A stretch of 64,000 nt of DNA from Patescibacteria group bacterium (lineage in GTDB: Bacteria; Patescibacteriota; Patescibacteriia; UBA2591; JAQUPP01): positions 192,467-256,466 of the forward strand of contig JAQUPP010000001.1 in the NCBI GenBank assembly GCA_028716665.1, written 5' to 3'. The position numbers were made by a program, and so were the translations under genes. Each line of letters opens with the position of its first letter. Position 1 is the stretch's first letter. The notes beneath the pieces are model-generated. The model was not told where the DNA came from and did not search any database. It worked only from the letters and a program-made list of their open reading frames with translations. Positions 8,697 through 52,866 of the stretch are shown here, piece after piece.

Positions 8697-8828
8697 TTTT
8701 TAAACGGAAGTGTAGTTATTTGAAATACCCTGTTTAAAAATAGGGTATTCTGGTTTTGTTTTAAATAGATATGGAGAGGTGGCTTCGGCCCGAGGCCGAC
8801 CAGCCTTGGGCTGGGAGCGATATTTTTT

Positions 8829-9086
8829 ATGTATTACGTTTATATTCTAAAAAGTAAAAAGAATAGTAAGCTATATAAAGGATTTACTAACGATTTAAAA
8901 AGAAGAATTAAAGAGCATAACTCCGGTAAATCTGTTTTTACTAAAAATAATGGACCATGGAGTTTAATTTATTACGAGTGTTTTCTCTCAAAAATTGACG
9001 CGGAAAAAGAAGAATTATTTTTAAAGTCAGGGAAAGGTAAAGAGAGAATAAAGTTCTTACTAAAAGATACATTGGAAAAAATATAA
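8829..9086 (+). CDS. GIY-YIG domain endonuclease (85 aa)
   Basis: The N-terminus MYYVYILKS...LYKGFTNDLKRRIKEHN matches the GIY-YIG signature (Y-x-YIL...Y-G-T..L..R...H). Confidence 0.75.
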   Translation: MYYVYILKSKKNSKLYKGFTNDLKRRIKEHNSGKSVFTKNNGPWSLIYYECFLSKIDAEKEELFLKSGKGKERIKFLLKDTLEKI

Positions 9087-9095
9087 AATAAACAT

Positions 9096-9182
9096 GGAGA
9101 GGTGGCTGAGCGGTCGAAAGCGACAGTCTTGAAAACTGTTAGGGCAGTAATGTCCTCGTGGGTTCGAATCCCACCCTCTCCG
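9096..9182 (+). tRNA. tRNA-Ser (anticodon TGA), class II
   Basis: Manual fold: acceptor GGAGAGG/CCTCTCC, anticodon stem ACAGT/ACTGT, loop CTTGAAA, long variable arm, T-loop TTCGAAT. Confidence 0.85.
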
Positions 9183-9273
9183 TACTTCGACAAGCTCAGT
9201 ACTTTTACTTCGAGCCACAGCAGTGGCGAGAAGCGAATTCACCCTCTCCATCAATTTTTGGTATAATTTTTAT

Positions 9274-18590: not shown

Positions 18591-18676
18591 AATTTTTTTG
18601 CCCCTGTAGCTCAACTCCGACGCCTTGAAGGGTCGGAGTCCCGACCGAAGCGTCGGGGCGGATAGAAAAATTTATT

Positions 18677-18940
18677 ATGAAAGGTTACGTTTATATTTTA
18701 AAAGATAAAATAAATAAATTTTATATTGGCAGTACGTCGGATATTAAGAGAAGATTACAACAACATAGCGCTGGACATACTCAAACTACGAGAAATATGA
18801 TTCATCCGATATTGGTTTTATCTCAAGAATACGAAACTTTAAGTATCGCCAGAAAAATAGAGAAAAAAATAAAAAATTTAAAAAGAAAGGACTATATTAT
18901 AAAAATGGTAGCCGATGGCTGTATAAAAATGAAAGCCTAG
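18677..18940 (+). CDS. GIY-YIG domain endonuclease (87 aa)
   Basis: MKGYVYILKDKINKFYIGSTSDIKRRLQQH matches the GIY-YIG signature. Confidence 0.75.
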   Translation: MKGYVYILKDKINKFYIGSTSDIKRRLQQHSAGHTQTTRNMIHPILVLSQEYETLSIARKIEKKIKNLKRKDYIIKMVADGCIKMKA

Positions 18941-19040
18941 AATTTGCCCCTGTAGCTCAATACCGACGCCTTGAGGGGTCGGTATCTCGACCTCCAATAA
19001 AAATGGAGCGTCGGGACGGATAGAAAAATTTTGTTCTTTT

Positions 19041-19112
19041 GCCCCTGTAGCTCAACGGATAGAGTGTGGGTTTGCGGAACCCAAGATCCGCGTCCGATTC
19101 GCGGCGGGGGCA
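19041..19112 (+). tRNA. tRNA, most likely Arg (anticodon GCG by manual fold)
   Basis: Acceptor GCCCCTG/CGGGGGC, D-stem GCTC/GAGT, anticodon stem TGGGT/ACCCA, loop TTGCGGA, T-stem CCGCG/CGCGG. The isotype needs tRNAscan confirmation. Confidence 0.7.
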
Positions 19113-19212
19113 TTGAAAAAATGCATTATAGTTAGTGCGTTTTTTTATTTGATCCCGCATCTTTTGGCAATGGTATTTTTAAATGCAAAGTATTATCGCT
19201 AAAAGGTGCGGG

Positions 19213-19250
19213 ATTGACAAAAACTGAAAAATTTGCTTGAATAATAACAG
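19213..19250 (+). promoter_or_regulatory. Promoter TTGACA-N17-TGAATAAT
   Basis: gggaTTGACAaaaactgaaaaatttgcTTGAATAAT, located upstream of the 19278 gene. Confidence 0.35.
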
Positions 19251-52548: not shown

Positions 52549-52866
52549 ATTAAATCTTTAACAAAAATGTTTATATAGATATATAATATCATATATAAAA
52601 ATTTTGTCGCCTCTGGACATTTGTTATTTTTATGTTATCATGAAAATAACAATTTAATTTGCCTAAACTCATGGATTTTCTGTGGGCATGGCAATAAAAC
52701 CTGTGATGGATATTGAGCTCGTCGTTAGAGCACCATCACAGGTCTATATCCGAAAGGGTGTAGGGTGACGCAAGTCATCGCTAGCGGCGGGCTTTATGTA
52801 TTCCCGCCAAAAAATTTAAAAAAATAAAAGTTGAGTTAACATAATTAATAATTAATTTTTATTTAT

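Follow-up and report, generated by a model that had tools for sequence, protein, structure and literature searches.

The 64,000 nt stretch of Patescibacteria DNA analysed here (the window; 34% G+C) carries, at two tRNA genes, what is probably a compact selfish element of these bacteria that resides in tRNA genes and spreads by a homing-type mechanism, the tRNA being regenerated from a copy that the element would bring with it. Its parts appear to be a gene for a GIY-YIG protein of about 85 residues, a double-hairpin element (DHE) that lies upstream of the gene and is specific to its family, and short segments derived from the tRNA. Judged from their sequences, more than 100 relatives sit in the same way at other tRNA genes. 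The order at the first locus, a tRNA-Arg gene, is module–ORF–module–tRNA, with the following features (HP1 and HP2 are the two hairpins of each DHE):

18600–18614, + strand: tRNA-Arg(GCG) positions 1–15, displaced copy, the left fragment of module 1 (exact 15-mer)
18615–18658, no strand: DHE of the CCGAC type, module 1 (sequence, fold, hairpin scan)
18615–18638: HP1 of module 1, CTCCGAC-G..-GTCGGAG
18639–18658: HP2 of module 1, TCCCGAC-..C-GTCGGGG
18659–18676, + strand: remnant of tRNA positions 16–23 (CGGATAGA) and an A/T spacer that abuts the start codon (repeat comparison)
18677–18940, + strand: predicted nuclease gene of GIY-YIG family A, encoding a stand-alone catalytic domain of 87 aa (ORF list, Pfam)
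18946–18960, + strand: tRNA-Arg positions 1–15, second copy, in module 2 (exact 15-mer)
18961–19016, no strand: DHE of module 2 (sequence, fold with z = -4.3, hairpin scan)
18961–18984: HP1 of module 2, TACCGAC..GTCGGTA
18985–19016: HP2 of module 2, TCTCGAC..inner stem..C-GTCGGGA
19017–19040, + strand: remnant of tRNA positions 16–23 (CGGATAGA) and a 16 nt spacer; no ORF follows, making this a solo (ORF-less) module
19041–19113, + strand: intact tRNA-Arg(GCG), the presumed invaded and regenerated target (ARAGORN, 19041–19112/3; Rfam tRNA, 58.8 bits)

The 15-mer GCCCCTGTAGCTCAA has three copies in the window and no more (18600, 18946 and 19041), compared with a chance expectation of 0.01 from shuffled sequences, and three matches were reached in none of 100 shuffles. 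The initial annotation had recognised all three copies, though it placed the first two 2 nt too low, and had correctly taken the third for the intact tRNA, identified by both ARAGORN and Rfam as tRNA-Arg(GCG). It described one hairpin after each of the first two copies; hairpins are indeed present there, but each module contains two that directly abut. The hairpin inserts are 44 nt (module 1) and 56 nt (module 2) long, and module 2 is 88% identical to module 1 across the first 50 nt. As had been noted, CGGATAGA and then AAAATTT follow the hairpins in both modules, and the ORF at 18677–18940 lies between the modules and encodes a GIY-YIG domain (Pfam PF01541). The 87-aa protein is encoded on four contigs, and in the three places read, which come from three separate samples, the spacing between ORF and tRNA was identical, so the Arg locus is not an assembly artefact. 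Scanning for promoters and terminators gave no signal stronger than background 5' of module 1, nor any terminator.

A second element in the window lies at a tRNA-Ser gene, and the parallel between the two loci drawn in the initial annotation holds, from the 5' fragment through the two hairpins, the sequence GAGCGAT and the GIY-YIG ORF to tRNA-Ser(TGA):

8773–8784, + strand: tRNA-Ser(TGA) positions 1–12, displaced copy
8785–8814, no strand: DHE of the GCC type, with HP1 at 8785–8799 (TCGGCC-cga-GGCCGA) and HP2 at 8800–8814 (CCAGCC-ttg-GGCTGG)
8815–8828, + strand: remnant GAGCGAT (tRNA-Ser positions 13–19) and spacer up to the ATG
8829–9086, + strand: predicted GIY-YIG nuclease gene, 85 aa, family S (Pfam, 7.1e-16, 58.7 bits)
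9096–9182, + strand: intact tRNA-Ser(TGA), the presumed target of family S (ARAGORN, Rfam)

The ORFs of both elements belong, by sequence, to the GIY-YIG superfamily PF01541 and presumably encode active nucleases. The match of the 87-aa protein to PF01541 had an E value of 2.9e-13 and 50.4 bits (cut-off 22.6). Among 21 homologues there is no variation at Y6, Y16, G18, R26 and H30 and almost none at E62, and the catalytic positions (GIY, YIG, Arg, His, Glu) align with the sequences of UPF0213 structures. The best solved relatives were the UPF0213 proteins 1zg2 (E = 2e-10) and 1ywl (7e-8), followed by SLX1 (1.5e-3) and I-TevI (2e-3). The proteins are 83–92 aa long, of which the Pfam domain spans residues 2–71; Pfam detected no separate DNA-binding domain, the sole other match, T5orf172, overlapping the same residues. 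Family A, with 144 homologues of which those with source names are nearly all from Patescibacteria, and family S, with more than 1200, share 37% identity. The ORF was full length in 75 of 80 family A loci, and clades of the nuclease track the tRNA type and the insertion site.

Comparative data supported the earlier proposal of a GIY-YIG family that targets tRNA 5' regions. There are two families, each almost always found immediately upstream of a tRNA, with a hairpin-interrupted 5' copy before the ORF, and at the tRNA-Arg site close relatives have empty or module-only alleles. Of 80 family A loci from different species, 68 have a tRNA on the same strand whose start falls within the interval from 11 nt before to 25 nt after the ORF stop; in a further seven it lies 54–186 nt downstream, with an extra hairpin module in between or a broken ORF. 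For family S, the tRNA starts from 14 nt before to 17 nt after the stop in 59 of 80 loci, and is a tRNA-Ser in all but a few cases (Cys or Tyr). At least 10 nt of the tRNA 5' end recur, as an exact copy, 55–115 nt 5' of the ORF in 36 of the 80 loci of family A; for family S, about 35 loci show this. The part of the original claim that needs refinement is the target: the insertion is inside the tRNA gene, in the D arm and sometimes in the anticodon or T loop. The DHE interrupts the tRNA sequence with no spacer, at positions 15/16, 10/11, 7/8 or 12/13 or in one of these two loops. Of all the elements, at least 90% lie at a tRNA gene.

The strict DHE pattern was present in 70 of the 80 family A loci, inside the copy of the tRNA 5' part just upstream of the ORF. 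The inserts, for which the initial annotation had proposed folding as a check, hold a conserved, family-specific double hairpin with covariation rather than an accident of the Arg locus. In A-type DHEs, the two outer pairs of HP1 were each Watson–Crick in 76 of 79 modules, with three to four pair types, and in 65 distinct S-type modules 774 of 780 stem pairs were Watson–Crick and pairs 1–3 covary. An alternative fold, with the 5' arm of HP1 and the 3' arm of HP2 as an outer stem around a central hairpin, was rejected as its outer pairs were mismatched in 50 and 45 of 79 modules. The DHE type goes with the nuclease family. A-type DHEs were found ahead of an A-type ORF in 63 cases and in none ahead of an S-type one, and S-type DHEs ahead of an S-type ORF in 82, the one apparent exception being typed as A; both types are adjacent at one locus (L038). 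In the 64 kb window the DHE hairpins were found only at the two tRNA loci and are not dispersed. The hairpin is probably the cognate DNA site of the nuclease. A search for a phage link gave 24 hits to the A-type pattern in 2.9 million viral contigs, all with 51–74% G+C and no GIY-YIG gene or tRNA nearby, and these were attributed to chance.

The consensus of the DHE is reverse-complement symmetric in both the A and the S type, a property that an RNA signal would not need. Symmetry bears on the possibility that the hairpins and the fragment are the 5' untranslated region of the nuclease mRNA and act in stability, translational control or autoregulation, or as processing signals by which the mRNA is parted from the co-transcribed tRNA; mobility of the element would be unaffected by this, but the DHE would have no role as a DNA site. 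We regard this as unlikely. The DHE does always lie on the coding strand, 13–40 nt 5' of the start codon, the purine-rich D-arm remnant (GGATAGGA, GGTAGAG) sits at the position of a ribosome-binding site, and the folds are more stable than those of shuffled sequences (z = -2.2 and -4.3 for the Arg modules, -4.4 for the Ser module). There is also a precedent in I-TevI, which represses its own synthesis via an operator resembling its homing site. Against these points, there are DHEs 3' of tRNAs as well, and others in solo modules that lack an ORF or in dead copies of a tRNA. G:U-type mismatches are no commoner than A:C-type ones. Mismatches in the A-type DHE (T:G in 12 cases, C:A in nine) show no strand bias, and the choice between a DNA and an RNA hairpin therefore leans mainly on the symmetry.

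Rfam, used at the gathering threshold for the whole window and at E ≤ 5 for both loci, matched only the intact tRNAs, and low-scoring hits to miRNA, snoRNA and plastid models were considered to be chance. Neither ARAGORN nor Rfam gave a tRNA hit on 18600–18676 or 18946–19040, even at E ≤ 5. The suggestion that the fragments might be tRNA-like processing signals gains no support, given this lack of signal on the modules, and a symmetric hairpin consensus would be unexpected for an RNA signal. A tRNA-like cloverleaf drawn for the Arg module (acceptor stem GCCCC/GGGGC) was discarded, the pairing being missing in module 2 and in relatives. A tRNA intron of the group I or bulge–helix–bulge kind does not fit either, as the interrupted copies are without positions ~24–76; no group I or other Rfam family was found on the Arg modules, and the intact tRNA-Arg has no insertion.

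The check for unoccupied sites in relatives that had been proposed at the outset was informative. At the DUF5673/tRNA-Arg site, close relatives have either nothing or a hairpin module only, and the window has the full element plus a module; this series indicates that the element is mobile. In L108, in which the neighbouring protein is 90% identical, the site is empty with identical flanks, and in L110 (93% identical) there is a module only, with one mismatch in 68 nt relative to module 1 of the window. The left fragment of module 1 still has the native tRNA leader in front of it, and its upstream flank matches that of the empty allele. The 3' end of the DUF5673 gene had been considered as an older ORF remnant owing to similarity to repeat D8, but this was dropped because the empty allele has the same leader. 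The empty allele itself could be the product of a precise deletion rather than a site that was never occupied.

Position 16, the single difference between the window tRNA-Arg and the tRNA of the empty allele, is also the only marker for co-conversion. It is C in the window tRNA and in the remnant of module 1 and T in the tRNAs of L108 and L110, the latter having C16 in its remnant and T16 in its own tRNA as in the empty allele. As one informative marker, C16 in the window fits co-conversion. Immunity of occupied alleles via this position was rejected, since both C16 and T16 tRNAs adjoin intact ORFs.

These alleles also bear on the reading that the ORF is a host gene, inherited vertically and serving some function related to tRNA, beside which the fragments are incidental duplications, or that the loci are scars of integrase-mediated islands. 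The ORFs are mostly intact and conserved, tRNA genes are hot spots of integration and 3' tRNA fragments typical of integrases occur near several loci, L022 among them. Nevertheless, this reading is extremely improbable given the empty, solo and full alleles among close relatives, the tandem, nested and ORF-deleted copies and an element-borne tRNA with a foreign acceptor stem. Moreover, the GIY-YIG gene is the sole ORF between the Arg repeats, so there is no integrase, and the duplicated part is the 5' end, broken by a conserved hairpin pair. Integrase islands encode tyrosine or serine recombinases, are kilobases long and usually duplicate the tRNA 3' end as a plain direct repeat. Like them and like prophages, the present element appears to have entered a tRNA gene and rebuilt it with a copy of its own, so that part of the tRNA is now duplicated, but it is only about 350 nt long, lacks a recombinase, duplicates the 5' part and has a hairpin pair at the junction.

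In the homing-type mechanism that we favour, the element would insert at a loop or junction of a tRNA gene, in the window between positions 15 and 16 of tRNA-Arg. The resident positions 1–15 would be left as a dead fragment abutting the DHE, and a new copy of 1–15 (the whole tRNA in some relatives) at the downstream end of the element would restore a functional tRNA, with which the ORF would be transcribed. The nuclease is predicted to break an unoccupied tRNA gene. For repair, the occupied allele would be copied, with the two halves of the tRNA as homology arms; co-conversion would accompany this, and the template would sometimes be switched. The DHE, as a hairpin or cruciform, would be the DNA structure cognate to the nuclease and would mark each junction between displaced tRNA and element. 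The arrangement in the window would have arisen by insertion of the full element, followed by that of an ORF-less second element at the same 15/16 site of the regenerated tRNA. Support for an element-borne tRNA comes from L020, whose left fragment, GCCCTCG, is complementary to CGAGGGC, the 3' acceptor strand of a displaced partial tRNA far to the right; the intact tRNA in between has another acceptor stem (GCGCTCG/CGAGCGC). In L190, the displaced 3' part of the tRNA carries the DHE and the native trailer. There are also signs of decay, with tandem and ORF-deleted derivatives in L022 and L031; the solo module in L022, equivalent to that of the window, keeps the last ~13 codons of a GIY-YIG ORF.

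Several features do not sit easily with homing. The protein appears to consist of the catalytic domain only, without the DNA-binding domains of I-TevI or Seg-type homing endonucleases, which suits sequence-specific recognition of a tRNA gene poorly. The regenerated tRNA retains the presumed target, contrary to what immunity of the occupied allele would demand, and the tandem modules suggest re-targeting. The left homology arm would be just 10–15 nt unless the upstream flank is syntenic. Internal remnants, which run from position n+1 to ~25 beside the left DHE and from 8 to n beside the right DHE, and DHEs at both ends would need template switching under simple homing, and would also fit a transposon-like element with DHE termini.

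The latter possibility, in which the symmetric DHEs are terminal repeats cut by a structure-specific nuclease and DHE–ORF–tRNA–DHE or the DHE alone enters hairpin loops without homology, is unlikely but accounts for a number of observations. Its targets would be the D, anticodon and T loops of single-stranded or cruciform tRNA genes and even other DHEs. DHEs were found at both ends in about 12 loci, with a copy on both junctions in L020, L027, L034, L042 and L059. In L036 and L070, single hairpins or DHEs are present at several loop positions of dead tRNA copies, anticodon and T-loop sites are also used, and in L113 one DHE is nested inside another. The insertion sites are unlike in sequence but are all loops or junctions, and the nearest solved relatives are UPF0213 proteins and SLX1-type structure-specific nucleases (PMC7017083). 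As for features of IS or MITEs, reverse-complement symmetry is a property of the DHE and some copies have one at either end, but there is no transposase and no short target-site duplication was seen. The confinement of the DHEs in the window to two tRNA loci and of at least 90% of the elements to tRNA genes also argues against this explanation, and the tRNA-derived remnants and the presumably co-converted C16 are better explained by the copying of a homologous template.

More tentatively, the ~85-residue nuclease may, together with the double hairpin cognate to it, be a new kind of self-contained mobility system guided by structure, in which a hairpin of DNA or RNA is recognised rather than a sequence, the hairpin loops of tRNA genes are cut in single-stranded or cruciform DNA and the hairpin pair is the sole requirement in cis. 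If so, no smaller autonomous mobile element would be known from bacteria, and nuclease and hairpin would be a programmable-looking pair. In an extreme form, the tRNA-derived arms beside the hairpins in the transcript would guide the enzyme.

Guidance by RNA could also take the form of a split guide, in which tRNA positions 1 to n, the DHE as scaffold and tRNA positions n+1 to 25 pair with both sides of the insertion site. It would suit a nuclease with no DNA-binding domain, and the scaffold type is specific to the nuclease family and lies exactly at the insertion point. The fragment is also an exact match to the local tRNA in most loci, even where the ORF is broken, though duplication or gene conversion explains this equally well. 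In three loci, L020, L022 and L113, the left fragment is unlike the local tRNA. The mismatch in the last two would under homing require long co-conversion tracts or an element-borne left fragment. The symmetry of the DHE favours DNA, and a guide would hit the cell's own regenerated tRNA gene. We know of no RNA-guided GIY-YIG enzyme, and consider a split guide very improbable.

A literature search found no description of GIY-YIG elements at the tRNA genes of Patescibacteria, and one paper notes GIY-YIG ORFs of CPR bacteria in rRNA insertions only (PMC11270868). The closest in context is SegB of phage T4, a free-standing GIY-YIG homing endonuclease in a tRNA gene cluster, which recognises a conserved motif of tRNA genes and whose gene is spread by break repair together with the tRNA genes next to it (PMC2330249; PMC13096335). 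In both cases a GIY-YIG gene is found among tRNA genes and not in an intron. SegB has DNA-binding regions beyond the catalytic domain and T-psi-C recognition, whereas the present proteins of about 85 aa are the catalytic domain only. The phage gene lies between tRNA genes, none of which is split, and has no double hairpin or duplicated tRNA fragment, whereas the present element is inside the tRNA gene. Of the traits of free-standing homing endonucleases, presence/absence polymorphism at one site is seen here (L108, L110 and the window), but a separate DNA-binding domain for a long recognition site is missing. The stand-alone URI (GIY-YIG) proteins of the UPF0213/YhbQ/YazA/Slx1 group (1zg2, 1ywl) are of the same size, single-domain and the closest solved relatives, but no mobile-element context, tRNA linkage or cognate hairpin has been described for them. 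Slx1 is a structure-specific endonuclease of branched DNA (PMC7017083).

In form, the hairpin pair resembles the DHEs or GC clusters of fungal mitochondria, according to the accounts of Paquin et al. 2000 in PMC10085805 and PMC2800124, the second of which also cites the GC-rich palindromes that flank tRNA genes in Neurospora mtDNA (Yin et al. 1981). Shared features, as far as those accounts describe them, are short G+C-rich paired hairpins in an A+T-rich genome, apparent mobility, no flanking duplications and conservation across species. As in mitochondrial DHEs, the hairpins here are two and adjacent, with structure kept above sequence (79 A-type and 65 S-type modules). The mitochondrial DHEs are, in the same accounts, dispersed in intergenic regions and rRNA genes with no known cognate protein, whereas the present DHE is bacterial, is confined to tRNA-gene junctions and accompanies only a specific GIY-YIG family.

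Paquin and colleagues are said to have described in 1994, for Allomyces atp6 and ORF360, a free-standing mitochondrial endonuclease ORF that brings a replacement piece of the gene it invades. Here too, an endonuclease ORF would enter an essential gene and carry the displaced segment, so that the gene works and the resident piece becomes a pseudo-fragment. The Allomyces case differs in having a protein-coding target, entered in its 3' part, larger endonucleases and no family-specific hairpin known to be required.

If the proposed reading is right, Patescibacteria, with small genomes and few spare tRNA genes, host very abundant tRNA-gene parasites that rebuild what they break. This would explain an annotation puzzle, namely the many tiny "GIY-YIG nuclease family proteins" beside tRNAs together with tRNA pseudo-fragments, and the fragment arrays would call for caution in tRNA gene prediction and assembly in these genomes. 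A minimal nuclease naturally paired with a specific nucleic-acid structure would be directly testable. It would also give double-hairpin elements a first candidate for a protein partner; how they move in mitochondria has lacked an explanation since the 1990s.

The 15-mer GCCCCTGTAGCTCAA was found three times at the Arg locus, at 18600, 18946 and 19041 (shuffle mean 0.01; 0 of 100 shuffles gave three matches). The copy at 19041 is the start of an intact tRNA-Arg(GCG) (ARAGORN; Rfam, 58.8 bits). Directly 3' of each of the other two, with no spacer, are two abutting G+C-rich hairpins, HP1 and HP2, together termed a double-hairpin element (DHE), followed in both modules by CGGATAGA, which corresponds to tRNA positions 16-23, and then by AAAATTT. 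A GIY-YIG ORF lies between the modules, and the same order of 5' fragment, two hairpins, GIY-YIG ORF and tRNA was found at the tRNA-Ser(TGA) locus.

Features of the Arg and Ser loci
18615-18638: module 1, HP1, CTCCGAC-gccttgaagg-GTCGGAG
18639-18658: module 1, HP2, TCCCGAC-cgaagc-GTCGGGG
18677-18940: GIY-YIG ORF of the Arg locus, 87 aa, between the two modules (Pfam E = 2.9e-13)
18961-18984: module 2, HP1, TACCGAC-gccttgaggg-GTCGGTA
18985-19016: module 2, HP2, TCTCGAC-ctccaataaaaatggagc-GTCGGGA
8773-8784: copy of tRNA-Ser(TGA) positions 1-12
8785-8814: two hairpins of the Ser locus, with GAGCGAT next
8829-9086: GIY-YIG ORF of the Ser locus, 37% identical to the Arg-locus ORF, then the intact tRNA-Ser(TGA)

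This arrangement, including the parallel between the two loci, agrees with the initial annotation, which had recognized the three 15-mers, the last of them in the intact tRNA, the tRNA 16-23 remnants with AAAATTT, and the ORF between partial modules; it had placed the first two 15-mers 2 nt too low and had given only the first hairpin of each pair. No Rfam family matched the hairpins, and in a hairpin scan of the window the hairpins were confined to these loci. The Arg-locus protein is encoded on four contigs, and the spacing between ORF and tRNA is identical at the three places inspected, each in a different sample, so the layout is not an assembly artefact.

The nuclease type at the Arg locus (family A) had 144 homologues with 58-77% identity, whose source names point to Patescibacteria, and a scan of one genome per species gave 80 loci (designated L, each with its own coordinates). 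In 68 of the 80, the start of a same-strand tRNA gene falls within the stretch from 11 nt before to 25 nt after the ORF stop, in line with the earlier proposal of a GIY-YIG family targeting tRNA 5' regions. In seven more the tRNA is 54-186 nt downstream, the gap being an extra hairpin module or the ORF being broken. The partners are mostly tRNA-Arg (five anticodons), with Thr, Phe, His, Lys, Ile, Met, Ala, Val, Pro and Asp making up the others. The ORF is full length in 75/80 loci, a double hairpin of the same kind lies between tRNA fragment and start codon in 70/80, and 36/80 have an exact 10-16 nt copy of the tRNA 5' end 55-115 nt upstream of the ORF. The layout is tRNA 1..n, HP1, HP2, tRNA n+1..~25, an A/T spacer, the ORF from its ATG and the intact tRNA. 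Most Arg and Thr elements have n = 15, and a clade on Phe, Lys, Met, Ile and Thr genes has n = 10; values of 7, 12 or 33-35 (the anticodon loop of tRNA-His) are occasional. A neighbour-joining tree of the family A nucleases grouped them by tRNA type and insertion site, the exceptions being some switches among tRNAs with a common D-arm sequence.

Unoccupied sites, a comparative check on that proposal, were found by using close homologues of the DUF5673 protein encoded upstream of the window Arg element to reach orthologous positions. In one relative (L108, with a DUF5673 protein of 90% identity) aatttttttt and then the intact tRNA-Arg come after the stop codon, and this empty site has the leader and downstream flank of the window, bar a one-base length difference per A/T run. 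In another (L110, 93% identical) the ORF is absent and only a module is present, consisting of positions 1-15, a DHE one mismatch from that of window module 1, CGGATAGA and a 37-nt spacer before the intact tRNA. The site is likewise empty in more distant relatives (60% identical). The L022 locus has the window layout of module, ORF, module and tRNA, and the last ~13 codons of the GIY-YIG ORF (KMIQDGCIKMVT and its stop) still stand behind its second module, indicating that solo modules come from internal deletion. The element is polymorphic among relatives and decays via ORF deletion. The tRNAs of L108 and L110 have T at position 16 and the otherwise identical window tRNA has C, while all three modules (the window's two and that of L110) carry C16 in the remnant. 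As a C16 remnant can stand beside a T16 tRNA, the remnant moves with the element and is not copied from the local target; from this single marker, the window tRNA looks to have been co-converted beside the insertion point. We regard these as very probably mobile elements of tRNA genes, and a host gene, or integrase scars, as a scarcely credible explanation. In L108, at the place corresponding to a long imperfect hairpin 3' of the window tRNA-Arg (19139-19224; gatcccgcatctttt...aaaaggtgcgggattg), there is a different G+C-rich hairpin, after 35 nt common to both.

In family A the consensus of HP1 is NNCCGAC-G-(variable, often an inner stem)-R-GTCGGNN and that of the abutting HP2 is NNCCGAC-Y-(variable)-C-GTCGGNN. 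The two outer HP1 pairs are each Watson-Crick in 76/79 modules, with three or four pair types (CG, GC, TA; CG, AT, TA, GC), and HP2 is similar. The alternative register, with the outermost arms paired together, was mostly mismatched across the 79 modules, ruling out one long stem. This mismatch and the covariation within HP1 and HP2 point to two hairpins under selection. A G follows the HP1 5' arm in 78/79 and a C precedes the HP2 3' arm in 71/79; these are mirror images, so the whole consensus is reverse-complement symmetric. T:G and C:A mismatches are equally frequent (12 and 9). The symmetry and mismatch parity fit a structure acting in DNA, either with the same shape from either strand or as a cruciform, and fit an RNA signal less well. 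Action of the hairpins at the RNA level, in the nuclease mRNA, would be compatible with mobility and is judged rather improbable; an RNA-guided nuclease is highly improbable.

The nuclease type at tRNA-Ser (family S) has >1200 homologues. In 59 of 80 metagenome loci the ORF end falls within a range of 14 nt before to 17 nt after the tRNA gene start; the partner is tRNA-Ser except at a few loci with Cys or Tyr, and about 35/80 have an exact 12-nt 5' fragment before the ORF. Insertion is at 12/13 in most, and otherwise at 8/9, in the anticodon loop (gtcttg-DHE-aaaac) or in the T loop. The S-type DHE, 30 nt in total, is YNNGCC-CRA-GGCNNR then YNNGCC-TNG-GGCNNR; its 65 distinct modules show Watson-Crick pairing at 774 of 780 stem pairs, with covariation of the three outer pairs, and its consensus is, like that of the A type, reverse-complement symmetric. 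A-type DHEs were found before an A-type ORF 63 times and never before an S-type ORF; behind S-type DHEs the ORF was of S type in 82 cases, and in one call it was typed as A. Where both kinds of element are side by side (L038), each has its own DHE type. Nuclease family and hairpin type are tightly coupled, with one apparent exception. The element encodes no family-specific factor besides the nuclease, so in the simplest view the DHE is the nuclease's putative cognate site.

The family A protein consists of the catalytic domain only, with the catalytic positions of the GIY-YIG domain conserved. Its best solved relatives by profile are the UPF0213 proteins BH0048 (1zg2, E = 2e-10) and EF2693 (1ywl, 7e-8), followed by SLX1 (1.5e-3), the I-TevI catalytic domain (2e-3) and UvrC, and NCBIfam gave only sub-threshold matches, to group I intron endonuclease and UvrC models. 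Slx1, YhbQ and YazA form one URI nuclease family, of which Slx1 is structure-specific (PMC7017083).

The element sits in a loop or junction of the tRNA gene, a working tRNA is kept, and the displaced tRNA piece abuts the DHE. In L020 a partial tRNA (16-76) to the right of the intact tRNA has the 3' acceptor strand CGAGGGC, complementary to the left fragment GCCCTCG.., and before this partial tRNA stand TCGTTCAA and a second DHE nearly identical to the first. The intact tRNA in between differs from them in its acceptor stem (GCGCTCG/CGAGCGC) and in its T stem. This pairing indicates that the resident tRNA was split at 15/16 and that the element brought its own complete tRNA-Arg, with a DHE at both junctions. 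Related right-hand pieces were seen in L027, L034, L033, L042, L059 and L036 of family A. In L190, of family S, the native trailer also present 3' of the window tRNA-Ser is attached to the last displaced piece (27-35, DHE, 36-76). In L031 the region upstream of the left fragment repeats the ORF 3' end, forming a tandem unit, and the microhomology at some junctions (e.g. ..GGCTC/AGTTGG in L031) fits repeated break repair.

The predicted nuclease would break an unoccupied tRNA gene and repair would copy the element from an occupied allele, the two tRNA halves serving as portable homology arms. Selection would retain only products with an intact tRNA, and recombination between the duplicated tRNA segments would reduce full elements (DHE-ORF-tRNA-DHE) to the left-only form that is common. 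In the window the full element would have come first; an ORF-less relative would have inserted later, again at 15/16, in the regenerated tRNA, and so would lie closest to the tRNA. As the putative DNA structure of the nuclease, the DHE would be bound for cleavage, junction protection or autoregulation. Weak points are the protein without a DNA-binding domain, the presumed target retained in the regenerated tRNA, the short left homology arm, and the internal remnants and second DHE, which require template switching or otherwise a transposon-like mechanism. Given these, we hold the break-repair explanation as a whole to be somewhat probable. Copying by break repair has about an even chance, and homology-independent, transposon-like insertion into DNA hairpin loops seems unlikely.

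We classify these as free-standing endonuclease elements. Fungal mitochondrial endonuclease ORFs bring a replacement piece of the invaded gene, the same principle as in the window element. T4 SegB is a GIY-YIG homing endonuclease encoded within a cluster of tRNA genes and recognizes a conserved tRNA-gene motif (PMC2330249); it is larger, however, lacks a hairpin partner and leaves the tRNA gene unsplit. Mitochondrial double-hairpin elements are G+C-rich and apparently mobile by an unknown mechanism (PMC10085805, PMC2800124), but are dispersed and without a known protein partner. In CPR bacteria, GIY-YIG ORFs were noted only in rRNA insertions (PMC11270868). A literature search of partial coverage returned no description of tRNA GIY-YIG elements, and an earlier one may exist. 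The unusual features are the domain-only nuclease, the putative cognate double hairpin and the self-repair of the invaded tRNA gene.

At about 20 of the 80 family A loci the ORF runs through tRNA positions 1-7 and stops at the conserved U8-A9-G10 (TAG), at about 1746-1767 in each of L007, L010, L011, L021, L031, L034, L035, L052, L053, L055, L056, L059, L062, L063, L067, L069, L072, L075, L081 and L083. With the stop codon inside the tRNA, RNase P cleavage at +1 would take it off the mRNA, and tRNA processing and nuclease expression are possibly coupled there. In L036 (1745-1880) and L024 (1755-1880) the tRNA-Thr(GGT) after the ORF lies between the arms of a 19-20 nt inverted repeat (AATTAAAATAAACATTTTCC in the leader, GGAAAATGTTTATTTTAATT in the trailer) that would give a long processing stem around the tRNA. 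In L045 (1400-1900) the sole tRNA-Arg copy after the ORF has a DHE in the D loop and a non-complementary 5' acceptor strand, so a working tRNA is absent at the locus. In L073 (1380-1500) a tRNA 5' half has two tandem DHEs in its anticodon loop, and a downstream tRNA is absent.

Copies of the tRNA 3' end (positions ~55-74) were found 150-1000 nt downstream at many loci, including L022 2071-3000, L019 1982-2172, L017 1995-2004, L029 2050-2067, L047 1988-2006 and L075 1931-1949; in L022 a 182-aa ORF intervenes, and the T loop of the copy is interrupted by 21 inserted nt. Other kinds of inserted DNA have evidently struck these tRNA genes as well, at the 3' side. Directly 3' of the window tRNA-Ser(TGA), 9184-9252 holds the hairpin-forming stretches TACTTCGACAAGCTCAGTA and CTTCGAGCCACAGCAGTGGCGAGAAG, the first part being the native trailer also seen in L190, and then GAATTCACCCTCTCCA, in which the T-loop and 3' acceptor end of the tRNA recur in diverged form; this 3' fragment looks like the scar of an older T-loop insertion. 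In L113 (1125-1200), with a nuclease 98% identical to that of the Ser locus, a second S-type DHE is nested in the second hairpin of the first, and the left tRNA fragment (GGAGGCG..) comes from another tRNA-Ser allele than the intact tRNA (GGAGAGG..). Elsewhere in the window, 52660-52779 is a full-length match to LOOT RNA (RF03000, 89.8 bits, gathering score 46.4), a structured RNA of unknown function.
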